Numbered from the stretch's first letter, positions 572 to 40,952 are shown. The stretch: DNA of 64,000 nt from Gammaproteobacteria bacterium (GCA_965248145.1 OZ252091.1:2898082-2962081), one strand, 5' to 3'. Notes: generated by a model from the letters alone, not told the origin. Program-made: numbers and translations.

Positions 572-1916
572 GAAATGATACTGAAATAGCCTGATTTCTG
601 TTCATGATGGGAGGATGAATACCATTATGAACGACCATCACTTAAAAACACTGGAGCAGGTGCGTGCCTTTCTTGACGGCACCCAGGCTGTCGAGTTCTC
701 CCTGGACACCAAAGCGGAACGCTACGATTTTATTCGTCGCACCCTCATTCGGTTTGCCTATCAGCGCTTGTCAAAGCCCGATAAAGGGCTGCTGCTCAGT
801 TTCATGACACATGTCAGTGGCTATTCGCGGATTCAGGTAAAGCGGTTGACCAAAACCTGGCTCAAACGGGGACAACTACAACCCCGCTCCAGTGCAGGCA
901 ATGGCTTTACACGCAAATATACGGATGCGGACCAACGCCTTCTGGTCGAACTGGATGAACTGCATGGCACGCTCTCCGGACCCGCCACCAAAAAGCTTTG
1001 TGAACGTGCCTGGCGGTTGTTTAAACTCCCCGGCTATCAACGATTGGCCGGCATCTCCGTATCACACCTCTACAATATGAGGCGTGCCAAAATCTACCAG
1101 AGGAATCGTCGCCAGTTCGATAAAACACGGCCAAGAGCGTCCGCTATTGGCGAGCGGCGCAAACCACAGCCCAATGGCCAGCCCGGTTATATTCGAGTGG
1201 ATACAGTTCATCAAGGCGACCTGGATGGGTTCAAAGGACTCTACCATATCAATGGCGTCGATGAAGTCACCCAATTTGAAATTGTCTGTGCCGTCGAAAA
1301 AATATCCGAGCGCTACCTGATCCCTGTGCTCGAACAGCTACTGGAGCAGTTCCCTTTTATGATTCTTGGCTTTCACGCCGACAACGGTTCCGAGTACATC
1401 AATCAGCATGTGGTCAAGCTCCTCAAGAAACTCCTGATCGAACTGACCAAATCCCGCGCTCGACACTCCAACGATAACGCGTTGGTCGAATCCAAAAATG
1501 GGTCGATCATCAGAAAGCACCTCGGCTACAGCCATATCCGACAGCACCTGGCGCCGCTGGTTAATCAGTTCCATCAAGACTATCTGAACCCCTACATCAA
1601 TTACCATCGGCCTTGCTTCTTCCCGGTGACAAAAACCAATGCCAAAGGGAAGCAGGTAAAAACCTATCCCTATGAAGCCATGATGACACCGTATGAGAAG
1701 TTCAAATCACTCGACCAACCCAGCCAACATTTGAAACCCGACATCACTATGAATAAACTGGATGCAATTGCTTTTTCAATCAATGATAATGAAGCGGCTA
1801 AACAGCTCAAGGACGCCAAACAACAACTCTTTAAAACCGTTACTGAACAGAACCATCAGGCTGCATAGCGAGCACATGGATGGCTGCTATCAAGACCCAG
1901 AGTTCAGTATCATTTC
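572..1916 (+). mobile_element. IS element encoding a single rve/DDE transposase, delimited by an exact 14-bp inverted repeat (boundaries approximate)
   Basis: gaaatgatactgaa at 572-585 is the exact reverse complement of ttcagtatcatttc at 1903-1916. A partial extra copy atgatactgaa lies at 540-550. The repeats flank the transposase ORF. Confidence 0.45.
615..1868 (+). CDS. DDE/rve-superfamily transposase (integrase catalytic core) with N-terminal HTH
   Basis: 417 aa. Motifs HADNGSEY and RHSNDNALVESKNGSIIRK are typical of the retroviral-integrase-like DDE core. N-terminal HTH-like LTKTWLKRGQL. Confidence 0.75.
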   Translation: MNTIMNDHHLKTLEQVRAFLDGTQAVEFSLDTKAERYDFIRRTLIRFAYQRLSKPDKGLLLSFMTHVSGYSRIQVKRLTKTWLKRGQLQPRSSAGNGFTRKYTDADQRLLVELDELHGTLSGPATKKLCERAWRLFKLPGYQRLAGISVSHLYNMRRAKIYQRNRRQFDKTRPRASAIGERRKPQPNGQPGYIRVDTVHQGDLDGFKGLYHINGVDEVTQFEIVCAVEKISERYLIPVLEQLLEQFPFMILGFHADNGSEYINQHVVKLLKKLLIELTKSRARHSNDNALVESKNGSIIRKHLGYSHIRQHLAPLVNQFHQDYLNPYINYHRPCFFPVTKTNAKGKQVKTYPYEAMMTPYEKFKSLDQPSQHLKPDITMNKLDAIAFSINDNEAAKQLKDAKQQLFKTVTEQNHQAA

Positions 1917-1974
1917 TCTATTGGAATATACTGTCGGGTATAAGTTCAGTATTCAGATAGCCTGTACACAATCT

Positions 1975-2241
1975 TCAGGATATATCCTGACCTTTCGGGA
2001 CAGCAGATTTCCAATCTTCGTCAGAAAACTCAACCATATACTCGCCCTCCGAAAACGGCTCACCGGCAAGATTATCAAGCCAGGCAATACCTTCATAATA
2101 GACATCGTCATATCGAGGATTTTTTACCGGATTTATCAATTTACGATCTTTCCGTTGCCTGTTTTTGTATCTCGCTCGCAATGCACGCATCCGTTCTTCG
2201 AACTCCCGCTTTTTGCTGTCCGATAAGTTATCTACGCTCAT
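1975..2241 (-). CDS. hypothetical small protein (88 aa), basic and charged
   Basis: ORF only; upstream context looks like a promoter. No recognisable domain. Confidence 0.25.
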   Translation of the reverse strand: MSVDNLSDSKKREFEERMRALRARYKNRQRKDRKLINPVKNPRYDDVYYEGIAWLDNLAGEPFSEGEYMVEFSDEDWKSAVPKGQDIS

Positions 2242-2290
2242 GGCACTGTATGTATAAATATTTTACATTCATATTGAAAAGAAATTATAC

Positions 2291-3145
2291 ATGACTTATA
2301 TTGAAATAACATTCCAGTCATCAAGAAAAACCATCAACACATTCACGCTGAGGGAGAAAGCGAGGCAGGGTATCACCATGCTGGGAAAATTTATTCACGG
2401 GCAACGCACCAGGCGCAACATGACACAGGAGTATCTCGCATCCAAGCTGGGTGTGTCTCGTCCTACCTATCTGCACATTGAGCGCGGTGAGCGGGAGCTT
2501 ACGGTTACCGAGGCCAAAACGCTGGCGGGGATTTTTGCTATGTCGCTTGAAGATTTTCTGGCTGGTCGCGAGCCGAAGCATACCGTTAAACTCACCAAGC
2601 AGCCGGCGCGAAAAACCGGAGACCTGCGGATTCGCGTGACACAAAAAAATCTCGATACGTTCAGGCAGGTTCTTCTTTACATCCTGAATAAAGTCGGTGG
2701 CAAGCCGAATGTAGGCGAGACCGTGCTGCACAAACTGCTTTATTTCATTGATTTTGACTATTACGAAAAATTTGAGGAAAACCTGATGGGCGCGACGTAC
2801 ATTAAAAATCATCACGGCCCGACGTCCGTCGAATTGCAGTCGATTCTGCAGGATATGCAGGAGAGCGGGGAAATTGAGGCAGTCAACAGTCAATATTTTA
2901 AACATGAGCAACAGAAATACCTGCCCCTCAAGCGTCCTACCCTTGCCTCTCTCTCTGCTCGCGACGTTGGGCATATTGATGATGTATTAGCCCGTCTCTC
3001 CGATAAAAACGCGAAAGAGATAGAAAACTATTCACACGGGGATATTTCCTGGAAATCGGCGCAGGACGGCCAGCCGCTTTCCTATGAGAGCGTCTTTTAC
3101 CGTGATGAGAAGTACTCCGTAAGAAACTATGACGATGAACTTTGA
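2291..3145 (+). CDS. HTH-XRE plus Panacea (DUF4065, SocA-like) domain protein; putative PanA-type antitoxin. A more likely start is ATG 2378 (MLGKF)
   Basis: N-terminal MTQEYLASKLGVSRPTYLHIERGERELTVTEAKTLAGIF is an XRE HTH. C-terminal ...VLHKLLYFIDFDYYEKFEENLMGATYIKNHHGPTSVELQSIL matches the Panacea/DUF4065 signature. It overlaps the downstream small ORF by 17 nt. Confidence 0.6.
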   Translation: MTYIEITFQSSRKTINTFTLREKARQGITMLGKFIHGQRTRRNMTQEYLASKLGVSRPTYLHIERGERELTVTEAKTLAGIFAMSLEDFLAGREPKHTVKLTKQPARKTGDLRIRVTQKNLDTFRQVLLYILNKVGGKPNVGETVLHKLLYFIDFDYYEKFEENLMGATYIKNHHGPTSVELQSILQDMQESGEIEAVNSQYFKHEQQKYLPLKRPTLASLSARDVGHIDDVLARLSDKNAKEIENYSHGDISWKSAQDGQPLSYESVFYRDEKYSVRNYDDEL

Positions 3146-4018: not shown

Positions 4019-4450
4019 TCAAAACGCTTCGGGAAGAACAGTAAAGCCTTCCCGATATGCTACGTCACGCAGTCGTTGATCAAAGGCAACAATGCCCTGG
4101 CCGGTTGTGAGTCCCTGGCACCACTGGATGGCGGCAGAGAGTTGCAAGGCATCCGCCGCTCGTAAGGGATGCACTGCCAACAATCGTTCGGCCGTACTGC
4201 GTAACGCCTCACTCGGTTGCATCTCGGTCCAGGCTTGCACCAGGGTATGCAACACGTGACGCGCGGCGCGTTCGTCAAGGGTTGTCAAGTCACCTGCTCT
4301 TACTTGTCGCATCAATGCAGAAATACATTCGGTGCGCGCGCGCCACCACGCGACTATGGAAGAATCTTCAACGAGCAAGTCCTGTACGATGGTCGTGTTC
4401 GGCTCATACACACATAGGGGCACAATGGCCGACGTATCCCAGAATCTCAC
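4019..4450 (-). CDS. vapC: PIN-domain VapC-like toxin (likely GTG start overlapping the antitoxin stop)
   Basis: FWDTSAIVPL...LRAADALQLSAAIQWCQGLTTGQGIVAFDQRLRDVAYREG matches the VapC PIN acidic-residue pattern. It lies immediately downstream of, and overlapping, a Phd antitoxin. Confidence 0.65.
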   Translation of the reverse strand: MRFWDTSAIVPLCVYEPNTTIVQDLLVEDSSIVAWWRARTECISALMRQVRAGDLTTLDERAARHVLHTLVQAWTEMQPSEALRSTAERLLAVHPLRAADALQLSAAIQWCQGLTTGQGIVAFDQRLRDVAYREGFTVLPEAF

Positions 4451-4737
4451 CAGCCTTCTTCCCGCTCCTGCAAAACCGCCGAACGCACTGCCGCCTGTGA
4501 GTCCATGGGACGCGGCAGTTCCCAAAAATCCTCTGGTAAGGATTTCTCAGCGCGTTTGAGCAGGCCTTTTTTTTCCATGTCTACCAGGTGCTCAGGTAGA
4601 GACGCAAGATCCGCAACAGGCAATAAACGCGCAACAGGACGACCATGGTCGGTAATTAACACTTCTTCGCCGGCTTTGACCCGACGCAAGTAGGCGCTTA
4701 TCGACATTTTGAGTTGTGACACAGTTGTAGTCTGCAT
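4447..4737 (-). CDS. Phd/YefM-family antitoxin
   Basis: MQTTTVSQLKMSISAYLRRVKAGEEVLITDHGRPVARLLP is the classic Phd/YefM N-terminus. 96 aa. Confidence 0.7.
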   Translation of the reverse strand: MQTTTVSQLKMSISAYLRRVKAGEEVLITDHGRPVARLLPVADLASLPEHLVDMEKKGLLKRAEKSLPEDFWELPRPMDSQAAVRSAVLQEREEGW

Positions 4738-4839
4738 GTAATGACCTGTCTGGTTAAAATATTAAGGCCAGTATAGTTAGTATACTATCGTCAAGCAACA
4801 TATTTGTGCAACTCCGTCTACCGTTCCTCATTAAAAAAA

Positions 4840-6402
4840 TCAATGGGGAGCGTAGTCGGACAACAGGCCCAGTAGCAGGCACAGGCAGGAAAGGAGCAGC
4901 ACCAGGGTAAACGGTATGGCCACGGTAATGGCGCCGGCCTGTAATGCGCTCAAGGCATCGCTGCCGCCGCCGACGAGTAAGGCCGCCGCAATCAGGCCCA
5001 GCAGTATCGCCCAGAAAGCGCGCTGGTAACGGGGCGAATCGAGCTTCCCCCCGGCGGTGATAATGTCCACGACCAGGGAGCCGGAATCGGCCGAGGTGAT
5101 AAAAAAAGTCAGCACCAGGACCACGGCCACCAGTGAAGCCAGGATTGTGAAAGGCAGGTTTTCCAGGGCATGGAAGAGGGCCAGGGAAGGATCGTCAATG
5201 CCGTTGGCCAACTCGCCGATGCCGTGCTGGACCTGGTCCAGCGCGACGCCACCAAAAACCGACATCCAGATGGCGCTGACCAGTGTCGGCAACAATAACA
5301 CGGCCACCAGGAACTCCCTGACCGTGCGGCCCTTGGAAATACGCGCGATAAATATCCCGACAAAAGGCGACCAGGATATCCACCAGGCCCAGTAAAAGAC
5401 GGTCCAGCTCTTGTACCATGCCTCATCTTCACGGCCGACCCAGTCACTCAAAGGCATGAAATGTGTCACATAGTGCGAAAGGTCTTCACCGATGCCGGAA
5501 ATAGCCGACAAGGTAGGGCCGGCAATAACAACAAACATAAGGAGCAGCAATGCAACCAGTATATTGAAGTTACTCAACACTTTTACGCCGCGATCCAGGC
5601 CGCGTATGACGGATATAATGGCAATCGCCGTGACCACGGTGATAATTAACAACTGTGTGGTCAAGCCATTGTCAACGCCGAACACAGCGTGCAGCCCCCC
5701 GGTGGCCTGTTTGGCTCCCAGTCCCAGGGAAGTGGCCAGACCGAAGATGGTGGCAAAAACGGCCACCACGTCGATGAAATGCCCCGGCCAACGCCAACAT
5801 TGTTCGCCCAACAACGGGTAGAAGATGGAACGGATTACTAACGGTAAACCTTTATTGAATGAAAAGAAGGCCAGGGACAGCGCCACCACGGCAAAGATGG
5901 CCCAGGGATGTAAGCCCCAATGGTACAGCGTCGCCCCCATCGCGGCGGCAGCCGCTTCAGGCGAATGAGGCAACACATTTAACGGTGTTCCGGCCCAGTT
6001 CGTATAGTAGGCAACCGGCTCGGCGACGCACCAGAACATCAGGCCGATACCCATCCCGGCCGCAAACAGCATGGAAAACCAGGATAGCCTGGAAAACTCG
6101 GGTTTCGCTGCTTCGCCACCCAGCCGTATCCTGCCGCAAGGCAATACGATCAACAGAATACAAAAGAAGACAAAGAAATTGCCGGAAATCATCACCAGCC
6201 AATCAAAATTTTCAATTGACCAGTTCTTTGCCTGTTCAAGAATGATTTTGGCTTCGCCGGGGAATAATAGGGTTCCGACAACGAAGCCGACGGTGAGAAG
6301 CGCAGTGATAAAAAACACCGGGTTATGTAACTCCATCCTGAAGATGCGGACGTTGTCCTGACCGACGGTATAACGGGTGTTGTAATGGTTGGGAGAGGAC
6401 AC
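4840..6402 (-). CDS. BCCT family transporter (glycine betaine/choline/carnitine)
   Basis: 520 aa polytopic protein. FSMLFAAGMGIGLMFWCVAEP is the BCCT signature. Confidence 0.85.
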   Translation of the reverse strand: MSSPNHYNTRYTVGQDNVRIFRMELHNPVFFITALLTVGFVVGTLLFPGEAKIILEQAKNWSIENFDWLVMISGNFFVFFCILLIVLPCGRIRLGGEAAKPEFSRLSWFSMLFAAGMGIGLMFWCVAEPVAYYTNWAGTPLNVLPHSPEAAAAAMGATLYHWGLHPWAIFAVVALSLAFFSFNKGLPLVIRSIFYPLLGEQCWRWPGHFIDVVAVFATIFGLATSLGLGAKQATGGLHAVFGVDNGLTTQLLIITVVTAIAIISVIRGLDRGVKVLSNFNILVALLLLMFVVIAGPTLSAISGIGEDLSHYVTHFMPLSDWVGREDEAWYKSWTVFYWAWWISWSPFVGIFIARISKGRTVREFLVAVLLLPTLVSAIWMSVFGGVALDQVQHGIGELANGIDDPSLALFHALENLPFTILASLVAVVLVLTFFITSADSGSLVVDIITAGGKLDSPRYQRAFWAILLGLIAAALLVGGGSDALSALQAGAITVAIPFTLVLLLSCLCLLLGLLSDYAPH

Positions 6403-6415
6403 TGTTTGATTATAC

Positions 6416-7819
6416 TTGACTATTTGTAGAATTGGCGGACAATTGCGCCGCCTGTCGGAAACCAGGCAACAGAAGTTTCCCGTAAAATCGCTGGTTCATG
6501 TATTTATCAGGGCAATCACTCTCTTGAACAATTCGCATCATCAAACAAGTAAACCGCAGATCTTCCTGGTTTGGAGCCTGCTGTTCGGCGTTGCGTTGAT
6601 CTCCGTCTGCAACGGCATGCAGGGTACGCTGCTGGGGATCAGGGCTTCACTGGAAGACTTCGGGGTAGACACCATCGGTCTCATTATGTCCGCCTATTAT
6701 GCCGGCTTTCTCCTGGGCGCCCGGGTGGTGCCCAAGTGGGTAAAACAAGTGGGACATATCCGCGTGTTTGCCGCCCTGGCCTCAATTGCCTCCGTAGCTA
6801 TCCTGCTGCATTCCGCCGTTGTCAACCCGGTGATGTGGTTCCTGTTTCGCACGTTGACGGGCTTTTGTCTGTCAGGTTTATACATGGTCTCGGAAAGCTG
6901 GCTGAACGCCATCTCCGGCAACCACAATCGAGGCCGCCTGCTGGCTGCCTATATGTTCACCATTGCCCTGGGGTTTATCGGCGGACAATTCCTGATAAAC
7001 CTGGCGTCCCCGCTGGGTTTCGAGTTGTTTATCCTGGCCTCCGTCATCCTGTCCATTGCCATCGTGCCTATGTTGCTGAGTAATATTTCCGCCCCGGCGA
7101 TTGCGTACGCGGAACACCTGGAGTTGAGCAGGTTAATCAGGCTTACTCCCCTGGGGGCCATGGGCGTCTTCGTACAGGGCGTCACCTCTGGCGCGGTGAT
7201 GTGGTTAACCGCGGTATTTGGCCAACAGAGCGGTTTTTCCACTGCCGAGAGCGCCTTGCTGGTGGGGACCCTGATGGCTGGAGGACTGGTATTGTTACTG
7301 CCCGTCGGCAGGTTGTCTGACCGCCAGGAGCGCCGCCACACTTTGCTGTTATTATCAGTCCTGGCTGCAGGCGCGAGCCTGTTCGTGCCGTTTGCCGCCC
7401 ACCTGGGCAATCTGTGGTTCCTGGCCGGTCTGTTGTTCCTGGTGGGTGGGATCGTCCTGTCGTTTTACTCGGTGTCCATGTCTCATATCAACGATCACGT
7501 ACGCAACGAGCAAATTCTGTCGGCCAGCGGCAGCATTATTTTTATAAATGGAATCGGCGGCTTATCAGGCCCCATACTCAGCACCCAGGTGATGAAATTC
7601 TTCGGGCCGGGCAGTCTGTATTATTTCGTGGCGCTGGTTTACCTGTTCATGGCGGTATTCACCCTTTACCGCATGTCGGTGCGCGCGCCGATTACCGCGC
7701 AGGAACAATCTCATGGGATGGCGGTCATGATGCAAACATCGCAGGTCATCGTAGCCGAGGCAATGGATGAAACAGACCTGGGCGACCCATTAGCGCCCGA
7801 GAATGAACAGGGGTTCTAA
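6416..7819 (+). CDS. MFS transporter. The true start is probably downstream (for example TTG at about 6524) because the first ~45 codons look non-coding
   Basis: 12-TM-like hydrophobic profile. The motif region GLYMVSESWLNAISGNHNRGRLLAAY sits between TM2 and TM3. Confidence 0.7.
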   Translation: MTICRIGGQLRRLSETRQQKFPVKSLVHVFIRAITLLNNSHHQTSKPQIFLVWSLLFGVALISVCNGMQGTLLGIRASLEDFGVDTIGLIMSAYYAGFLLGARVVPKWVKQVGHIRVFAALASIASVAILLHSAVVNPVMWFLFRTLTGFCLSGLYMVSESWLNAISGNHNRGRLLAAYMFTIALGFIGGQFLINLASPLGFELFILASVILSIAIVPMLLSNISAPAIAYAEHLELSRLIRLTPLGAMGVFVQGVTSGAVMWLTAVFGQQSGFSTAESALLVGTLMAGGLVLLLPVGRLSDRQERRHTLLLLSVLAAGASLFVPFAAHLGNLWFLAGLLFLVGGIVLSFYSVSMSHINDHVRNEQILSASGSIIFINGIGGLSGPILSTQVMKFFGPGSLYYFVALVYLFMAVFTLYRMSVRAPITAQEQSHGMAVMMQTSQVIVAEAMDETDLGDPLAPENEQGF

Positions 7820-7829
7820 CTCGCGTTTC

Positions 7830-8633
7830 TTACTGGGAAATAACGTCAGGAATGAAGAGTTGTTCCCCTGAAATTCTGAATTCACGAATAATGCACTGTC
7901 CCTGCTCTCCGCGGATGAAGTCCGCATATTTTTGCGCCAGGGCTGTTTGGGTATGCGGGTGTTTTTCGGAGTTCACGAGGATAACGTGATAGGGATTTTG
8001 TAACTCCGCCGCGCCCTCATGGACGATAGCCAACTCTATTTTGCCCCTGAATGCCAGGTACGTTCCCCTGTCGGTCAGCGTATATGCCTGTTTGTCACCG
8101 GCTATTTTCAATACTGCGCCCATACCCTGGCCCACGGACAGGTACCAGGCCCCTCCCGGCTTGAGCCGCGCCGCTTGCCAAAGAGTCATTTCCTTCTTGT
8201 GTGTCCCTGAGTCATCCCCTCTTGAGATAAAACCGACACCGGAGCTCGCTATGCGCGTCATGGCGTCCGCCAGTGAATCCGCCGCGGCCACGGCAGCCGG
8301 GTCTGCAACGGGACCTACCAGGATAAAGTCATTGTGCATGACAGGTAAGCGCTCCACGCCGAAACCGCTCTCGACGAACTCCTTCTCCGCTGCCGGGGCA
8401 TGGACCATGACCAGGTCCACGTCGCCGTTCCTGCCCAGGCGCAAGGCCTTGCCGGTACCTACGGCGATTACGTCCAACCTGACGTTGTTCTGCTCTTCAA
8501 AAGGCGGATGCAACAGGGTCAACAGACCTGAATTTTCCGTACTGGTCGTCGTGGCCAACCTTAATCGTTCCTCCGCGACAACGACGTTTGAAATTAAAAC
8601 TGCCGAGAGTAGTAAATATAAAATTCTTTTCAT
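7830..8633 (-). CDS. Periplasmic substrate-binding protein, TupA-like (tungstate/oxyanion PBP). Start taken at MKRILYLLLSAVLISNVVVA, a signal peptide
   Basis: Signal peptide followed by a PBP-like fold. RGDDSGTHKKEMTLW resembles the TupA RGDxSGT motif. No permease or ATPase gene is adjacent, so this is an orphan. Confidence 0.5.
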   Translation of the reverse strand: MKRILYLLLSAVLISNVVVAEERLRLATTTSTENSGLLTLLHPPFEEQNNVRLDVIAVGTGKALRLGRNGDVDLVMVHAPAAEKEFVESGFGVERLPVMHNDFILVGPVADPAAVAAADSLADAMTRIASSGVGFISRGDDSGTHKKEMTLWQAARLKPGGAWYLSVGQGMGAVLKIAGDKQAYTLTDRGTYLAFRGKIELAIVHEGAAELQNPYHVILVNSEKHPHTQTALAQKYADFIRGEQGQCIIREFRISGEQLFIPDVISQ

Positions 8634-33560: not shown

Positions 33561-34484
33561 TTGCAGGTGTATCAAATGCTTAAAGAAGTCGATAACGGTA
33601 CAATCAGGGAAATAGACGGTGAGGCGCGAGTTTATTACGAAGGTTATTGGATCCGGTATTACGACGTACCTAATAATTTAGCGTATAAAAAATCCCTTAT
33701 AGATCAATTAACCCGTCGGGTCTTTCACCACGTGGAAACGGGAATAAACACCCCGGGCAATAAACTCGAGGAAGTCCGGCACAGGTATGAAGCAGAAAAT
33801 AACTCGTCAAAAAAACGCGTACTGGCCGCCATGCTGGCCGGCGCGCTGCTCAATCGTGGCGCCGATATCCTGACTCGTGTCGTTGAACTCGAACAGATTG
33901 GCGTATCCGTCAAGCCGGACAACGAACTCCTGAGGGAATGTGGCCTTTGTTTTATGGGCGCGCTTGAACACGGGAAATACATTCGGGTTAAACATGGCCG
34001 GGAAGGACTGGAGGAACTCTGGGGAGAACCGTTTAAGGCATTTACCACCCCGGTTGAACAATTCCTTGAGAGCCGCTACATCAAAATTGCACAGACTATG
34101 CAGGGAATCGACCGGCTTACTGAAAAAATGAACGAGGTGTTTGCAGAATCACCCATGTTCCGTAAACAGGTGAAACTGGTTGAAGAATTGGCGGTCAGCG
34201 CTAAAAATACCATGGAAACCTTACGTAGCGACCCGGCTATAATTGAAATATGGCCCCGGTTTGTCAGCGCCTCCGAACAGGTTGCAGATTGCAAACCCAC
34301 TTTTGGTAATGATGCGACCCGGCGCGAATATACTTTGGGGAAACGCGGGATCGATATTTTTCACAGATGCGGCACATTAATCGAGGATTTAACAAATTAC
34401 CGGATTCCAATGCCCAAAACCACTCATGCCCTTATCCAACACTGTGACCAGTTCAAGGAAAAATACGCCAGCCGGCTGTATTAA
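33561..34484 (+). CDS. hypothetical protein (307 aa) downstream of shc
   Basis: Long ORF with good coding appearance; no recognisable domain. Confidence 0.4.
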   Translation: MQVYQMLKEVDNGTIREIDGEARVYYEGYWIRYYDVPNNLAYKKSLIDQLTRRVFHHVETGINTPGNKLEEVRHRYEAENNSSKKRVLAAMLAGALLNRGADILTRVVELEQIGVSVKPDNELLRECGLCFMGALEHGKYIRVKHGREGLEELWGEPFKAFTTPVEQFLESRYIKIAQTMQGIDRLTEKMNEVFAESPMFRKQVKLVEELAVSAKNTMETLRSDPAIIEIWPRFVSASEQVADCKPTFGNDATRREYTLGKRGIDIFHRCGTLIEDLTNYRIPMPKTTHALIQHCDQFKEKYASRLY

Positions 34485-34486
34485 GG

Positions 34487-34590
34487 TTTTTGGTTTTCAG
34501 TTTTTAGTTTTTAGTTTTTGTCATTACAAATTTACCACTAACAACTGATAACTAAAAACTGACAACTTACAACAAAAAACTAAATAAATG
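34487..34590. repeat. Low-complexity intergenic tract upstream of the acyl-CoA dehydrogenase: (agttttt)x3 and an inverted (aaaaact)-rich counterpart
   Basis: ttttcagtttttagtttttagtttttgtca ... aactgataactaaaaactgacaacttacaacaaaaaactaaat. Confidence 0.6.
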
Positions 34591-36357
34591 AGTAATTACA
34601 CCGCGCCCATCCGCGATATGCGGTTTGTACTGAATGAACTGGCAGGGCTGTCTGCTATCAATCAATTACCCGGCCTGGAGGATGCAACGGAAGATATCGT
34701 GGATGCGGTAGTTGAGGAAGCGGCAAAATTTGCCCGTGACGTACTCGCTCCCACAAACCACTCCGGGGACATAGCCGGCGCGGCCTTTAAAGATGGCAGG
34801 GTCATTCCTGCCGAGGGTTTTGATAACGCCTACCGGGCATTTGTAGAGGGTGGCTGGTCGTCCTTGCCGTTCCCGCCGGAGATAGGTGGTCAGGGACTGC
34901 CGGAACTGGTTGCGGCCGCGACCAACGAAATATGGCAATCAGCTAACATGGCATTCGCTTTGTGTCCCATGTTGACGGAAGGATGTGTCGTTGCCCTTGA
35001 AACCCATGGTTCCGCTGATTTGAAGGCAATTTTCTTACCGAAGCTTGTTTCCGGCGAATGGGCCGGGACGATGAACCTGACGGAACCGCAAGCCGGTTCC
35101 GATTTGGCCGCGGTAAAGACCAGAGCCGTACCCAATGGTGACCATTACCTGTTATCAGGACGAAAAATTTTTATCACCTGGGGAGATCATGACTTCACGG
35201 ACAATATTGTACACCTGGTACTGGCGCGTCTGCCCGACGCGCCGCCGGGGATTAAAGGCATAAGCCTGTTCCTGGTTCCCAAGTTGCAGGTCAATGCGGA
35301 TGCTTCGACCGGGCAACGGAACGACGTCTACCCTATTTCCATCGAACACAAATTGGGCATTCATGCCAGCCCGACCTGTGTCATGAGTTATGGAGATAAT
35401 GGCGGCGCCGTCGGCTACCTGGTCGGCGCCGAAAATGACGGTATAACCTGTATGTTCACCATGATGAACCACGCCCGCCTGTCAGTCGGTATTCAAGGCC
35501 TCAGTATCAGCGGGCGGGCTTATCAACAGGCCCTTGATTATGCAAAAGATCGTGAACAGGGAAAAGTGCCGGGACAGCCCGGACGAGCGAAGATCATCGA
35601 TCACGCAGACGTGCGCCGGATGCTGATGCTGATGAAATCCGGCTGTGAGGCTATGCGTGCAGTCGCCTACGTAACCGCAGCATCACTCGATCACATAAAC
35701 CAGGCTTCAAACACGAGCTACCACACCGAAAGATTTGCCCTGCTGACGCCGGTGGTCAAGGCCTGGTGCACCGAACTGGCCCAGGAGATCACCTACCTGG
35801 GCGTACAGGTACACGGTGGCATGGGCTATATTGAAGAAACCGGCGCAGCGCAACATTACCGGGACGCGCGCATAACGACGATTTACGAAGGAACCAGCGG
35901 CATCCAGGCGCAGGACCTGGTCGGCCGAAAAATCATCAAGGATGGCGGCAAAGCCGTCAAGGTACTCATCAGTGAGATTGAACAGGTCATTGCCGAATTA
36001 TCCGACTCGGACCTCAGTCAGGGAATCCTTAAACGGGAGTTGACCGACGCTACCGGAAAACTGGAGCAGGCCACGGACTGGTTGCTGCAGAACTATCAGG
36101 ATGACGCCAATGCGCCGGGTTCCATTGCGATAAATTTCCTTATGCTGATGGGTTACGTTTGCGGCGGCTGGCAAATGGCCCGGGCGGCGCTCATAGCACA
36201 GAAAAAATCAACCTCATCAGGTGATGATTTTTACCGGAGCAAAATCGTAACGGCAAGATTCTATGCAGAACACTACCTGTCCAGGAGCAGCGGGCATTTC
36301 TCGGCCATCCGGGCAGGCAGTGAGTCGATCATGGCTTTGGATGCGGAGCAGTTCTGA
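34588..36357 (+). CDS. acyl-CoA dehydrogenase, long (~590 aa) type with a C-terminal extension
   Basis: The ACAD N-terminal, middle and C-terminal domains are recognisable, for example LTEPQAGSDLAAVKT and IYEGTSGIQAQDL. Confidence 0.8.
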   Translation: MSNYTAPIRDMRFVLNELAGLSAINQLPGLEDATEDIVDAVVEEAAKFARDVLAPTNHSGDIAGAAFKDGRVIPAEGFDNAYRAFVEGGWSSLPFPPEIGGQGLPELVAAATNEIWQSANMAFALCPMLTEGCVVALETHGSADLKAIFLPKLVSGEWAGTMNLTEPQAGSDLAAVKTRAVPNGDHYLLSGRKIFITWGDHDFTDNIVHLVLARLPDAPPGIKGISLFLVPKLQVNADASTGQRNDVYPISIEHKLGIHASPTCVMSYGDNGGAVGYLVGAENDGITCMFTMMNHARLSVGIQGLSISGRAYQQALDYAKDREQGKVPGQPGRAKIIDHADVRRMLMLMKSGCEAMRAVAYVTAASLDHINQASNTSYHTERFALLTPVVKAWCTELAQEITYLGVQVHGGMGYIEETGAAQHYRDARITTIYEGTSGIQAQDLVGRKIIKDGGKAVKVLISEIEQVIAELSDSDLSQGILKRELTDATGKLEQATDWLLQNYQDDANAPGSIAINFLMLMGYVCGGWQMARAALIAQKKSTSSGDDFYRSKIVTARFYAEHYLSRSSGHFSAIRAGSESIMALDAEQF

Positions 36358-36362
36358 TTCAG

Positions 36363-36644
36363 ATGGATATACAGGATGAACAGGATTATTTTATCCTGTA
36401 CATCCATGTTATACACCTCATGGCGCTTTGCCGTGAGAGGTTTGCTTTCCTGTTCGACCTGTCAGCGAACGAACGGCCGTTTCTCGACGATGTTCTTGAT
36501 CGCGGGGAAATAAATGCAGACCTGCTTGATGTCGGTCCCGAGACACAAACGCGAATTGATGCAATGCCAATGCTCGCCTGGAAAACAGTGCTTGAGGATA
36601 CACCCAAACTCACAAGCACGAAGAAAATCAATTCCTTGACATAG
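36363..36644 (+). CDS. small hypothetical ORF (93 aa)
   Basis: ORF only; an antisense ORF of similar size also exists. Confidence 0.15.
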   Translation: MDIQDEQDYFILYIHVIHLMALCRERFAFLFDLSANERPFLDDVLDRGEINADLLDVGPETQTRIDAMPMLAWKTVLEDTPKLTSTKKINSLT

Positions 36645-36671
36645 AAAGAGAATCGCGGATTTTACCGGAAT

Positions 36672-37235
36672 TTACGAATTGGGTGGCCGTGTGGGAATAT
36701 CAAACTCCACCTCGGCGCCACTACCCCACTTACCCAGAATTTTTCTATTCTCAAAGCGATAATAAAACCCTCCCACTTCGTCAAGCCTTGTTAACATACT
36801 CTCCGCGGACATGTTGGTATTGACCCATTTCCCACTCCGCATTAATTTCGTTTTATGTTCTCTTCCTTTAGGAATCTCATCCCCATTCTCAGACATATGA
36901 TACCCGGTACCAAGAGCACGACTTTTCATTTTGTTGAACTTTTGATTTTTAAGTGCCTCAAATCGATCATATTCGGTAAGAACATAATCCAGCACCTTCA
37001 TATATACATCCTTACCATTCTTGCCATTATGGGGTTGCCCGTTGATTTTATATCGATGTATTACTTTTTTTCCTTCAGAATCATCACCAGGTGGTGGTGG
37101 TGGTGGAGGGCCTGGAGGTTCAGAAGTTTTTACTAGTTTCAATCCCTTTAAAAATTCGACTACATTATCTTTTTTGGGCGTATGCCTTCCCTCGCTATTT
37201 TCCTTCACTCGGCCAACAATAATCTCAATCAACAT
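36672..37235 (-). CDS. hypothetical protein with a poly-proline linker (EPPGPPPPPPPGDD). Last gene of the MerR-VIT operon. The reading frame is open a further 177 nt upstream without a start codon
   Basis: 187 aa from ATG 37235. The same frame continues upstream to 37412 (…KDDLNYCIEYFHRYLQYDEVKTGQAFENLRRDYEQARSDNEAKSKIPEAWDQLVANSDK-M…), overlapping the 3' end of the upstream gene. Confidence 0.45.
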   Translation of the reverse strand: MLIEIIVGRVKENSEGRHTPKKDNVVEFLKGLKLVKTSEPPGPPPPPPPGDDSEGKKVIHRYKINGQPHNGKNGKDVYMKVLDYVLTEYDRFEALKNQKFNKMKSRALGTGYHMSENGDEIPKGREHKTKLMRSGKWVNTNMSAESMLTRLDEVGGFYYRFENRKILGKWGSGAEVEFDIPTRPPNS

Positions 37236-37399
37236 CTTGTCGGAATTGGCGACAAGTTGGTCCCAGGCTTCAGGAATTTTTGATTTGGCTTCATTATCCG
37301 ACCGAGCTTGTTCATAATCACGACGTAAATTCTCGAAAGCCTGTCCCGTTTTTACTTCGTCATATTGCAGGTAACGATGGAAATACTCAATGCAATAAT

Positions 37400-38287
37400 T
37401 TAAATCATCCTTCGTAATGAGGCGTGGTCATCTGAGACCAAGTCGGGAAAACTCTTTACATAGTGTTTTTGAGCAAAGCGATTTTGGAGTTCACGATCCC
37501 ACTGAACCAAATCCTCATGCTCAAGCCACCGCCTCAAACGATTTGTCTGTTCATAAGCAAACTTTTGTCGTTCTACGCGCCCCGATATTCGATCAGGGGC
37601 ATCGTTCTCGACGTCGTCACCCCAAAGTTCTTGTTGTAATTCCTTTAAATCGCCGTAGCGGGATGTATCGCTCACGATTTCTCGTTCGAATCGAGTGAAG
37701 TCATCCACTGTATCAAGCACGTATCTGCGGGCGAGCGCTCCATAGTACCTGCTCTCGTTATTTGCACAGTAAACCAGGTAAGCGCAGTGGCGCTCATAGA
37801 CCTCACCGACTTTCTCTGGGTCGATTTCCCCGAAAGATGCTTCGTTCGGGTTTGCAATCACCATCAAGTCAAGTTGCAGTTCTATCGCTTGCCGGCAAAG
37901 CACATCAAGCATCCGACGTTGTCCACCACCGGTAATGGGGAGTTGGCATTCGAGCAGTGCCAGTATCGCTTGGGTAATGCCATAATTTCTCGACCATAAT
38001 AGCAACCATGCCATAGCGCAGGGTGTAGCATCCCAATTTTGGCACGGTTTCAGAATGTGTCCCATTTTTTTCATAACTTCCAAAAGGCGTTTGCTTTCTC
38101 CGTTTCGTTCGGAAATTATGTCATCCCAAGGCGCGCTCCATAAGGCATCGTGAAAATACAACTTCGTATTGGGTAGTACCGTCGTCACTGGTAATTTCTC
38201 ACTCAATTTGTCCCGAAAGCCGACTCGTGCGAGGCCTTTCCGGAGGTTGTCGAAAGCACGTCGCCATGCCGTCTGCGGCCTGGCCAA
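37400..38287 (-). CDS. hypothetical protein (295 aa; TTG start) with an LPITGGGQRRMLD motif
   Basis: Long ORF in the operon. Same frame as the upstream 181-aa ORF, separated from it by two in-frame TGA codons. Confidence 0.45.
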   Translation of the reverse strand: MARPQTAWRRAFDNLRKGLARVGFRDKLSEKLPVTTVLPNTKLYFHDALWSAPWDDIISERNGESKRLLEVMKKMGHILKPCQNWDATPCAMAWLLLWSRNYGITQAILALLECQLPITGGGQRRMLDVLCRQAIELQLDLMVIANPNEASFGEIDPEKVGEVYERHCAYLVYCANNESRYYGALARRYVLDTVDDFTRFEREIVSDTSRYGDLKELQQELWGDDVENDAPDRISGRVERQKFAYEQTNRLRRWLEHEDLVQWDRELQNRFAQKHYVKSFPDLVSDDHASLRRMI

Positions 38288-38350
38288 GCGGTCTGCTCTT
38301 GCAGGGAAGACTTCAAACCCAGCTCCGCAGCAACTTTTTCAGGGAAGGGT

Positions 38351-38896
38351 TCAACCCCAGATGTTCAGGTGTGTTCGGCTACGTGAATACGTACGCCGCG
38401 AGTAGCGTCGTGGGGAGAGGAACTCACGTAATATTGCGTCCGTAGAGCGCTGCAACCCCAGTTCCACAAGACAGTTCTGGCAGGGGTTCAGGTCTGTCTC
38501 GCCTGCTATGGGAGCCCCCGTCTCCGTGTCAATTCCCGTGATATGGAACTCTCCGCTGAAATCGCTGGTCGCGACATAGAGCTCGAGCCCATCTCTCCTC
38601 ATCTCCTTCAAGGTGCGACAAAAAGTAATATGAAACCTGCGTCCCTCACTGCCGTCTTCCAGTGCAGCTTGAGCCTCCTCTCCGTGGTCCCGGATATAAA
38701 GCACTACCTCGCGACCCTTATAACTCAGCAGCCTTCCGTCCGTGTCAACTTCAGATAGGGCAATCTTTTTGCCTTTTTTCAACTCGATGTCGATGGGTCC
38801 TTCCTTTTGAATGTCGACATTCACCTTCTCGTCCTCCCTGCCCCGCGTCGAATTGCTTTTTGCAGTTCTGTAATATCCATGCTCAAACGTATTCAA
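38351..38896 (-). CDS. hypothetical protein (181 aa)
   Basis: Overlaps the upstream VIT gene by 14 nt, which suggests translational coupling. No known domain recognised. Confidence 0.45.
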   Translation of the reverse strand: MNTFEHGYYRTAKSNSTRGREDEKVNVDIQKEGPIDIELKKGKKIALSEVDTDGRLLSYKGREVVLYIRDHGEEAQAALEDGSEGRRFHITFCRTLKEMRRDGLELYVATSDFSGEFHITGIDTETGAPIAGETDLNPCQNCLVELGLQRSTDAILREFLSPRRYSRRTYSRSRTHLNIWG

Positions 38897-39797
38897 CGAT
38901 ATTTTGCACGGCCTCTTTCAGGGATAAATCAAGAGTGGTTCGTTTCTCCGCCGCGCGGATGAGTCGTTTGACATGGCGGGAAAACCCCTTCCCGTGATCA
39001 CTTTCTGAAAGGGCAGCCAGGAATGCGACAACAATATCCTGCTCCGGTTTCCCATCGCCGATGCCATCAGGCGCCCAAAGCCCTTCAACTGTGGAGCCGG
39101 CAGGTTCTTTCAATATCAGCACAAAATCCCGGTCCATCAGGGAACTTCCTCCCGACAGGGATAGTTCTCTTACATCATTGATTACAGAAACAGCCACTGA
39201 ATATGAAGGACAGTCGAAATCGGCCTGAGCCAGTGCCCCCTCAATTCGAACAGCCAGTGTAAACCCATGGTTTGCTGACAATACATACTCCGGCGCTTGG
39301 TGAGGAGCCAATCCTGACGCGGACGGGTCTCCATATCGAGGAGCTATCGTTGCAGGAAGGTGGAAGCGAAGACTGTCACCCTGCCAGCGATGCAGTTGAC
39401 CATACCTGAAGCGGATAACAGCCTGTTCACCAGGCAGAATATTGCCTGCATTCAACGTGAAGAGACCCGGCTCCAACTGCTGCAGGAGTATGGCTGAATC
39501 GCCATCATCGATAGCGTCCTCGTAGCTCTCCTCCGCCTTGACATTGGCTTGCACCACGCCGCGCAGTATTTTTCCATTGAGTTCCAGAGAGAGATCCAAT
39601 AACACAGCGTCTGACGGGAGCGGAAAGGTGTAAACCGCCTCAATATTGACATTCTCCAGGTTCTTATAGACCTGGGTCACAACAACGTCTGCAAACAAGC
39701 CTCGTAAACTTGCCTGAACATCGACGGATTCAAGGGCAATATGAGCGTCATCTGCACCTGCGGGTTCAAGTACGGCTGCTAAGGCATTTATCATCAC
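38883..39797 (-). CDS. VIT-domain protein without a vWA domain (304 aa)
   Basis: ESVDVQASLRGLFADVVVTQVYKNLENVNIEAVYTFPLPSDAVLLDLSLELNGKILRGVVQ ... ESYEDAIDDGDSAILLQQLEPGLFTLNAGNILPGEQAVIRFRYG ... APRYGDP matches the VIT (vault inter-alpha-trypsin) domain pattern. There is no DxSxS MIDAS motif. Confidence 0.55.
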   Translation of the reverse strand: MMINALAAVLEPAGADDAHIALESVDVQASLRGLFADVVVTQVYKNLENVNIEAVYTFPLPSDAVLLDLSLELNGKILRGVVQANVKAEESYEDAIDDGDSAILLQQLEPGLFTLNAGNILPGEQAVIRFRYGQLHRWQGDSLRFHLPATIAPRYGDPSASGLAPHQAPEYVLSANHGFTLAVRIEGALAQADFDCPSYSVAVSVINDVRELSLSGGSSLMDRDFVLILKEPAGSTVEGLWAPDGIGDGKPEQDIVVAFLAALSESDHGKGFSRHVKRLIRAAEKRTTLDLSLKEAVQNIVEYV

Positions 39798-40258
39798 TGT
39801 TTCCCCTCTTTTGAGTGTATTTTTTCGTAAAGAACCATCACATCTGTAGCAAGCTCCCGAACCTCCTCCGGTGTCAGATTCGCTCGTTTTGGGTCAATAA
39901 TGAGCTCGATACCATCATCGATAACAACGTGACTCCAGACCTCTACCGAACCCTTTTGACGAGGCCGGGGGGGGGGCTGCAGGGTCTCTTCCCCACCTGC
40001 GCTGAGCAACTCCCGGATACGCTCCAGGGACAACCCGGCTTGTTGCCACTTTCGTATCTCAAGCAACTGGTCAAGATGTCGAGTCGTGTAGTGCGCCCCG
40101 CGACCAACCCCATCAGGTCGATCCACAAGTCCGACCTGGATGTAATACCGCACCGTTCGCCTGGGCAAATCCACGAGGCTACTGATCTCATCCAGAGTGA
40201 ATAATTCTTCTTTTTCTTTCATGACAGTTAATATAGACGGTATTACTGTCATTTTCAA
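39794..40258 (-). CDS. MerR-family HTH protein with a short C-terminal domain. First gene of a 5-gene operon; overlaps the next gene by 4 nt
   Basis: FTLDEISSLVDLPRRTVRYYIQVGLV...HYTTRHLDQLLEIRKWQQAGLSLERIREL is the MerR HTH. Confidence 0.6.
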   Translation of the reverse strand: MKMTVIPSILTVMKEKEELFTLDEISSLVDLPRRTVRYYIQVGLVDRPDGVGRGAHYTTRHLDQLLEIRKWQQAGLSLERIRELLSAGGEETLQPPPRPRQKGSVEVWSHVVIDDGIELIIDPKRANLTPEEVRELATDVMVLYEKIHSKEGKQ

Positions 40259-40381
40259 GTAGTTTTCCTGATACTGTTGTCAACAAATAGAATTTGCGCC
40301 TGACTACGATACAAACTATAATTGAGCCATGATCGAGGCAGTCACTTTCGGCACATTCAGGAGTGAAGGGAAGCACAGTTT

Positions 40382-40660
40382 ATGGAATTTATATGGGACC
40401 CAGGCAAGGCAGCAAGCAACTTACGACGACGCGGTATCTCGTTTCATGAGGCAGCTACGGTATTCAGTGACCTGTTAAGTACGACTGTGTATGATCCTGA
40501 CCATTCAGTTGAAGAAAATCGTTACATTACTGTGGGGATTTCCTATCGTGCTCGCATGTTAATGGTAGCCCATACTGAGCAGAATGATCATGTGCGGATC
40601 ATCAGTGTCCGTGAACTTACACGCAGAGAAAGAAGACAGTATGAAGAAGGAATCGCATGA
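40382..40660 (+). CDS. brnT: BrnT (DUF497) ribonuclease toxin
   Basis: MEFIWDPGKAASNLRRRGISFHEAATVF...RIISVRELTRRERRQYEEG is a BrnT family signature. Confidence 0.75.
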   Translation: MEFIWDPGKAASNLRRRGISFHEAATVFSDLLSTTVYDPDHSVEENRYITVGISYRARMLMVAHTEQNDHVRIISVRELTRRERRQYEEGIA

Positions 40661-40892
40661 AAAGATGAAAGACGATCTGCGCCCGGAGTATAACCTGTCT
40701 CAATTACTCCGTGGTGGAGTGCGAGGCAAATACGCTGAGCGGTTTCGCGCTGGAACCAATCTTGCGTCGTTATTAGATGATGGCGCCAGCGACTCATCAG
40801 GGGATACAGTAATCAAGGATAATCCCATGTCCCCGTGTTCTCACCAAGGCAAATCTCCGCTGTTATCGAATAATCACCGAAAAAAAGTTTGA
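40641..40892 (+). CDS. brnA: BrnA antitoxin (start at the internal ATG, overlapping brnT)
   Basis: MKKESHEKMKDDLRPEYNLSQLLRGGVRGKYAERF is the BrnA pattern. Confidence 0.65.
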   Translation: MKKESHEKMKDDLRPEYNLSQLLRGGVRGKYAERFRAGTNLASLLDDGASDSSGDTVIKDNPMSPCSHQGKSPLLSNNHRKKV

Positions 40893-40952
40893 GCGTGACT
40901 TAGTAAATACAGGGCCGGTATCTGGTAATACAATCTTCCCTGGCCTGCAAGG

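Follow-up and report, generated by a model that had tools for sequence, protein, structure and literature searches.

Within a stretch of 64,000 nucleotides of DNA from a Gammaproteobacteria bacterium (GCA_965248145.1 OZ252091.1:2898082-2962081, the whole of which is called the window here), five open reading frames (ORFs) between positions 36672 and 40258 encode a MerR-type regulator, a VIT-domain protein and three further products, and a first-pass annotation had taken them for an operon that might constitute a new conflict or defence system. Five co-directional ORFs are indeed found on the minus strand with the coordinates and lengths originally given, as are the two motifs that were quoted (LPITGGGQRRMLD and EPPGPPPPPPPGDD). 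We conclude, with a probability that we put at roughly 85%, that the region represents the decayed remains of three independent cassettes, a mosaic lying within a defence-island hotspot, and is not one operon. The lesions in these genes, and the absence of co-conservation among them, are seen directly. Alignment to intact relatives reveals truncation or a frameshift in four of these ORFs; among the five only the MerR gene is apparently undamaged. Apart from this regulator gene, the copy in the window has probably lost its function.

Homologues of the VIT protein, of the 295-residue protein and of the DUF8245 protein led to relatives that share the flanking genes, and the corresponding loci were then retrieved. 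One of these, locus L004 from a related metagenomic genome, provides an intact reference for the same chromosomal position and has the gene order lrp, BrnT, MerR, a 741-aa VIT-vWA protein, DUF8245, a 339-aa protein, a 243-aa protein, a 389-aa protein (HSDR_N), a 230-aa protein, PIN/MazE, Fic, acyl-CoA dehydrogenase and squalene-hopene cyclase. Alignment with blastn resolves into three collinear blocks, in which window positions 40907..39063, 39062..37437 and 37417..36626 correspond to L004 positions 885..2742, 4057..5673 and 7515..8321, respectively. Between the first two blocks 1314 bp are missing from the window at a junction (39063|39062) that was read at base level. This deletion amounts to exactly 438 codons, is in frame, and has eliminated residues 245-682 of the L004 protein, comprising the vWA domain (Pfam 270-416, with the metal ion-dependent adhesion site (MIDAS) motif DCSGS) and a middle region of ~260 aa. 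The second deletion, of ~1.84 kb (L004 5674-7514), was located by blastn and junction alignment at window positions 37417-37437 and has a short microhomology, TACGA, at its breakpoint. Lost with it are ~80 codons at the 3′ end of the 339-aa gene, the 243-aa gene in its entirety and ~136 codons at the start of the 389-aa gene, so that two gene lesions, the missing C-terminus of the 339-aa protein and the missing N-terminus of the 389-aa protein, are due to one event. The opposite polarity, in which the window would represent the ancestral arrangement and L004 would carry insertions, was rejected, as distant relatives normally have the full-length VIT-vWA protein, the C-terminus of the 339-aa protein and the HSDR_N domain.

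The VIT ORF (38883-39797, minus strand, 304 aa) has its VIT domain at the N-terminus (Pfam E-value (E) 3.7e-28, residues 22-132) and gives no Pfam match to a vWA domain, in agreement with the first-pass annotation. The stand-alone architecture, which had been regarded as unusual, is nevertheless the product of the 1314-bp in-frame deletion of the vWA domain: residues 1-245 correspond to the VIT region and residues 246-304 to the extreme C-terminal tail of the full-length protein, this tail being 80% identical to that of a further relative, L002. The L004 protein, with 741 aa, contains both VIT and vWA domains, and the window retains 304 of these ~741 residues. This deletion accounts for the alignment of all 160 homologues to only ~80% of the 304-aa query; those that are complete have vWA domains. 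In the family alignment, D273, S275 and S277 of the vWA motif DxSxS are invariant or nearly so. The allele lacking vWA is unique to this genome and forms a cluster with one member. On these comparisons the VIT effector in the window is almost certainly disabled, with its regulator and promoter surviving.

The fourth ORF (37400-38287, minus strand) can be read as 295 aa, as first proposed, but its homologues begin at the residue matching codon 34 (GTG 38188), which gives a product of 262 aa (37400-38188) and consequently a gap of ~160 nt after the 181-aa ORF rather than 63 nt. It belongs to a family with 180 representatives at 50% identity, nearly all of 310-350 aa. In the alignment the window copy ends at approximately family position 258 (homologues are 336-339 aa), and its last 5-6 codons and stop are contributed by the fused 389-aa gene, read out of frame. 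The part that is missing includes the motif Y..Y...S..IHGS, in which H281 is the sole invariant residue and Y270, Y273, S277 and S283 are near-invariant. Downstream of this junction, the 187-aa ORF (36672-37235) that had been annotated as a gene begins at an internal Met of the truncated 389-aa gene, the 3′ remnant of which occupies 36672-37417 on the minus strand. The 389-aa frame is open from the junction to 37236 with no start codon upstream of the internal Met, and translation identifies the apparent 164-nt gap before the 187-aa ORF as the in-frame, start-less continuation of the truncated gene, not an intergenic region. With the 389-aa protein as a tblastn query, residues 136-389 align to L001, a locus identical to this region of the window. 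The L004 protein possesses an HSDR_N / PD-(D/E)xK nuclease-like domain (E 6e-09, aa 50-119), which the window gene has lost in the deletion.

The 181-aa ORF (38351-38896, minus strand) was initially listed as unknown. It is recorded in Pfam as DUF8245 (PF26739) and resembles ZorE, the HNH protein of type II Zorya, over the N-terminal half of the latter, both in PADLOC (E 3.7e-39, profile positions 25-154 of 375) and in NCBIfam (E 7e-33, positions 33-154 of 358). The protein differs from ZorE in lacking the HNH half, coverage stopping at ~154 of 358-375, although a distant DUF8245 homologue (P0159, 293 aa) keeps an HNH-like motif. Unlike a type II Zorya locus, the adjacent genes in the window (VIT, the 339-family remnant, MerR, BrnT and Fic) give no ZorA or ZorB match in PADLOC. 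Close to its 3′ end the window gene has lost 1 nt, and the resulting frameshift cuts off a tail of 12-13 residues, (M/L)NPSLKKLLRRWV. Of the 12 other family members that were aligned, 10 conserve this tail, and in the window it can still be read in another frame at 38313-38348.

The co-conservation of these genes was examined in a scan of one genome per species, which returned at least 594 loci encoding the VIT-vWA family; the best 80, taken for comparison, span Gammaproteobacteria, Rhodothermales, Desulfobacterota, Spirochaetia, Acidobacteriota and others. In 79 of 83 VIT-vWA loci the gene immediately upstream, in the same orientation, encodes a MerR homologue, and the MerR protein of the window is 50-74% identical over its full length to the products of these upstream genes. 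All-against-all clustering of the ORFs within 5 kb at the 83 loci yielded no other co-conserved family common to more than six of them, and DUF8245, the 339-aa, 243-aa and 389-aa proteins and TmtA are found at none of the 80 VIT-vWA loci from other genomes. The five-gene operon is therefore reduced by this check to a pair, MerR being the only gene kept with VIT-vWA. The same gene set and order does not recur at these 80 loci, and relatives at the same locus display at least five different arrangements. A new conflict or defence system composed of the five genes is contradicted by the lack of co-conservation, by the damage to four of the ORFs and by the separate occurrence of the other genes.

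The MerR and VIT-vWA pair also occurs amid insertion sequence (IS) elements on Massilia and Aquabacterium plasmids, where the regulator is annotated as ‘MerR family’ (Massilia) or ‘helix-turn-helix’ (Aquabacterium) and its partner as ‘VIT and VWA domain-containing protein’. With this pair as known from RefSeq the window shares the upstream MerR with an overlap of 1-4 nt, the VIT domain and the promoter dyad with one mismatch; it differs in lacking the vWA domain with its MIDAS and the ~260-aa middle region. The neighbours of the pair in 32 genomes are mixed, with a few defence or toxin-antitoxin (TA) genes (Cas6, WYL, mad2, HipA, type I methyltransferase and PtuA) and many housekeeping genes. 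No VIT-vWA homologue was detected in GenBank phages and a single locus in IMG/VR, and a phage origin was dropped on these grounds. The vWA domain has been damaged at least three times in the clade to which the window belongs (in the window, in the related locus L091 and in the frameshifted L002 copy). Elsewhere, a MerR and VIT-vWA pair at L003:2313-6481, on a Joint Genome Institute (JGI) contig with TraC/TraV conjugation genes, encodes a VIT-vWA protein that ends at 480 aa just before IS66, and is another truncated copy, on a conjugative element.

The longest MerR ORF (39794-40258, minus strand) encodes 154 aa, the length originally reported. The regulator assignment stands (MerR_1 domain, Pfam E 4e-16), whereas the length does not, since the TTG ‘start’ at 40258 belongs to the -35 hexamer of merR's own promoter. 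The likely start is the ATG at 40222, giving 142 aa. This promoter (40230-40258, minus strand; scan match 10/12) has a -35 element TTGAAA at 40258-40253 and a -10 element TATATT at 40235-40230, separated by a 17-nt spacer that contains the dyad ACAGT-AAT-ACCGT (40249-40237, minus strand; ACAGTAATACCGT, read directly), with one mismatch to ACAGT-N3-ACTGT. A dyad of this form (at most one mismatch) is present at the same position in 43 of 72 loci, against 1.7 expected from shuffles, and the conserved layout across loci is the -35 element, the dyad, the -10 element and then an ATG ~7 nt on. The same layout, which covers 40220-40258 in the window, recurs across phyla. As the ATG follows the -10 element by 7 nt, the merR-VIT transcript is probably leaderless. 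MerR-family regulators bind dyads inside their target promoters, and the conserved dyad within this promoter thus points to MerR autoregulation, which may take the form of repression or of activation, the spacer being 17-18 nt compared with the 19-20 nt of classic MerR activators.

The DUF8245 gene belongs to a different context. In L086 it lies directly after Fic and overlaps the start of a gene for a 1355-aa protein, followed by the 243-aa gene, with neither MerR nor VIT present; DUF8245 is likewise found without MerR or VIT in L090, where the cassette is cut by an IS element. The 1355-aa protein is a homologue of Tiamat TmtA (PADLOC E 1.3e-71) with SACS and NOV_C domains. The middle gene after DUF8245 is variable, being that of the 339-aa family in L004, L091 and the window, and TmtA in L002 and L086. 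Tiamat is reportedly a single-gene anti-phage system, TmtA being a large Sacsin/GHKL-like ATPase. In these two relatives, by comparison, DUF8245 overlaps the start of TmtA and a 243-aa gene follows; the window lacks TmtA altogether (tblastn with the L002 protein gave no match in the window-identical L001) and has the truncated DUF5677-like gene instead. In L094 and L095 the 339-aa gene has the 389-aa gene directly after it, and a homologue of the 339-aa protein is also encoded alone elsewhere in another genome (L005).

A distant relationship of the 339-aa family to DUF5677 is indicated by matches in 11 of 47 diverse members (best E 1.8e-06); the window protein and its close relatives fall below the Pfam threshold for this domain, and PADLOC gives no consistent match for the family. 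In a preprint (10.1101/2025.10.07.681051, 2025) DUF5677 was found to be enriched next to serine recombinases in defence contigs, and the DUF5677 ORF tested there was not among the protective ones. Profile searches of the PDB returned nothing for DUF8245 and only noise at E>0.3 for the 339-aa family, and AlphaFold2 models of both were poor (mean pLDDT, the predicted local distance difference test score, 47.5 for the 339-aa family; 37.3 for DUF8245). A metagenome scan with DUF8245 recovered no relatives, and one with the 339-aa family recovered only two near-identical loci; a PHROGs search gave nothing useful.

The 243-aa protein is absent from the window and is found at L004:6003-6734, L002:13199-13930 and L086:12881-13612, after either TmtA or the 339-aa gene. 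Its stretches ‘IYIDILGFS’ and ‘GDGFAIV’ resemble class III nucleotide cyclase motifs by eye only; there is no match in Pfam or PADLOC, nor in the PDB by single-sequence search, and identification as a nucleotide cyclase was set aside for want of support from hidden Markov models (HMMs). A second, diverged and partial copy of the 339-aa gene is located in L004 (9989-10734, 68.6% match to window 38199-37413) near PIN/MazE and Fic, and may have served as a substrate for the rearrangements by which Fic came to lie on the opposite side of the island.

Several observations weigh against interpretation of the region as a decayed mosaic. The vWA deletion is in frame and the ratio of nonsynonymous to synonymous substitution (dN/dS) is low in the remaining parts; the cell could still produce and use the shortened VIT protein. 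In L091, vWA has undergone an independent in-frame deletion of its own (540 bp, 180 codons including the MIDAS motif; site L091:7030-7032 versus L004:2798-3337), and recurrent in-frame loss of this domain in the clade might reflect selection rather than decay. Values of dN/dS against relatives are 0.14-0.30 for MerR (0.21 versus L002), VIT and DUF8245, and are raised to 0.35-0.45, yet still below 1, for the 339-aa and 389-aa remnants; these values cannot date the loss of function. The reference contigs L002, L004 and L091 derive from long-read metagenomes with likely indel errors: L004, assembled at 10x, has a frameshift in MerR, and L002 has multiple frameshifts. Single-base lesions such as the DUF8245 frameshift are for this reason less secure than the large deletions.

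These points bear on an alternative in which the VIT-only protein has been retained under MerR control in a new or surviving role, for example in regulating MerR, in binding through VIT or as a decoy, with the downstream fragments being junk. The exactly in-frame deletion, the intact promoter, operator and MerR, the parallel event in L091 and the low dN/dS (0.14-0.30) of the retained parts would all fit such a protein. We nevertheless regard it as improbable, since the allele occurs in one genome only, chance alone would put both of two such deletions in frame in about 1 in 9 cases, the L091 gene calls are fragmented, and the invariance of the vWA DxSxS motif across the family argues for an essential role of this domain in normal function. 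It is highly unlikely that the lesions are an artefact of a collapsed or chimeric metagenome assembly concealing an intact island in the real genome. The source is a metagenome-assembled contig and related contigs contain obvious indel errors, but the 3.77-Mb record (ENA ERZ25766727) is labelled as 98x and circular, both junctions are clean (one exactly in frame) with continuous identity in the flanks, and comparable but different deletions in other relatives show that such events do occur at this locus. Weakest of all is the interpretation of the five ORFs as an intact, translationally coupled operon encoding a new conflict or defence system based on a stand-alone VIT protein under MerR, which we consider scarcely credible. 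In its favour, the ORFs all point in one direction with little space between them, and the longest ORFs do overlap by 4 nt and 14 nt; they are located among BrnT, Fic and, in relatives, other TA genes, and the 181-aa ORF is related to the Zorya protein ZorE. Against it, co-conservation is limited to MerR and VIT-vWA, four ORFs are damaged by truncation or a frameshift, the 187-aa ORF lacks a start codon at the true 5′ end, and DUF8245 and the 339-aa family are found without the other genes, the arrangement itself being confined to one genome.

The decayed mosaic is situated in an accessory islet between acyl-CoA dehydrogenase and lrp-putA, where the flanks are as originally described, and its setting as a defence island is borne out by six related genomes that have the islet with differing mixtures of TA and defence genes, including Fic/SoFic-like, BrnT, PIN, TacAT, SocA and TmtA. 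The interval between lrp and the acyl-CoA dehydrogenase gene is a recombination hotspot in which cassettes are swapped and eroded, in a setting of ordinary chromosomal genes (sarcosine oxidase, TonB receptors, squalene-hopene cyclase and putA). Synonymous divergence (dS) from L004 is ~1.0 for the flanking acyl-CoA dehydrogenase gene (34588-36357) and 0.2-0.6 for the island genes (36672-40222); the lower values suggest that the island was exchanged between the lineages more recently, after their divergence. The GC content is 0.41-0.44 only over 36500-37500, the region of the 389-aa remnant, compared with ~0.50-0.53 for the rest of the islet, which is consistent with a separate foreign origin of that remnant. 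An island integrated at a transfer RNA (tRNA) gene was also considered and found to be unsupported, no tRNA or Rfam features being detected in the window.

The neighbouring Fic protein is confirmed (Pfam E 7.7e-15; PADLOC SoFic 1e-33). Of the adjacent BrnTA module, BrnT is recognised (E 1.4e-25) and BrnA is not detected by Pfam. An ORF at 40584-40892 after BrnT has no Pfam match at E<=0.1 and is not called as a gene in the public record; its N-terminus looks BrnA-like by eye (DDLRPEY...GGVRGKY), and the antitoxin at this position may be degenerate. Between squalene-hopene cyclase and acyl-CoA dehydrogenase, a 307-aa ORF (33561-34484) that matches no family is retained in the same place in L001, L004 and L091, with lengths of 302-324 aa and again no Pfam match. 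A 93-aa plus-strand ORF (36363-36644) converges on the 389-aa remnant; it is called in the public record, has no family match, and only its edges align to L004.

The earlier statement that these genes have no characterised function holds for several of the proteins, and literature searches on the pairing of MerR with VIT/vWA retrieved no published function in the library searched, the only lead being a preprint on a VIT-VWA protein of Limnobacter. This protein, LT3126 of Limnobacter thiooxidans, is cytoplasmic, contains 708 aa, responds with strong induction to gamma rays, heat and oxidative stress, and on overexpression increases survival ~200-fold (10.64898/2026.05.23.727404). It has the same domain order as the VIT-vWA proteins described here and a similar length; it may belong to the same family and have a MerR neighbour, and the likeness serves only as a lead. 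Among proteins of known structure, the VIT-vWA region of the full-length relative comes closest to that of PARP4 (PDB 11jf chain P, E 3.7e-38, residues 18-497) and to the ITIH heavy chains ITIH4 and ITIH1. In contrast to these eukaryotic cytoplasmic proteins, the bacterial protein has neither PARP nor BRCT parts; its C-terminal region is its own and MerR is its partner, and the window copy retains VIT only.

We propose that the first of the three cassettes was the widespread two-gene module of MerR and VIT-vWA, that the second was led by DUF8245, with the ZorE-N-like protein followed by a variable middle gene (TmtA or the ~339-aa DUF5677-like gene) and then often the 243-aa protein, and that the third was the 389-aa HSDR_N nuclease-domain gene, of which the 3′ part alone is left. 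In the first cassette MerR most likely autoregulates the pair, and an induced cell would make a cytoplasmic VIT-vWA protein that may act through MIDAS-dependent protein binding. The intact module would then represent a MerR-gated stress or conflict response, the effector of which in the window lacks its MIDAS domain. In the second cassette the ZorE-like DUF8245 domain may be an adaptor or a DNA-binding partner for interchangeable effectors. We suggest only tentatively that the intact ancestors were two undescribed systems, one an autoregulated, mobile MerR and VIT-vWA pair and the other a DUF8245-led cassette of interchangeable effectors with the 243-aa protein as partner.

What appeared to be a new domain architecture and an operon are products of deletion, and defence assays on clones of the five ORFs would probably be fruitless. 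The targets worth following up are the intact versions, such as those of locus L004, of the MerR and VIT-vWA pair and of the DUF8245-led cassette in relatives. The former is very widespread, tightly linked and equipped with a conserved operator, and the latter reveals that the ZorE N-terminal domain exists as a separate gene preceding Tiamat-type genes. If our proposals are correct, MerR and VIT-vWA may be the stress-induced survival factor reported in Limnobacter, and the DUF8245-led cassette would connect Zorya II with Tiamat by a domain common to both.

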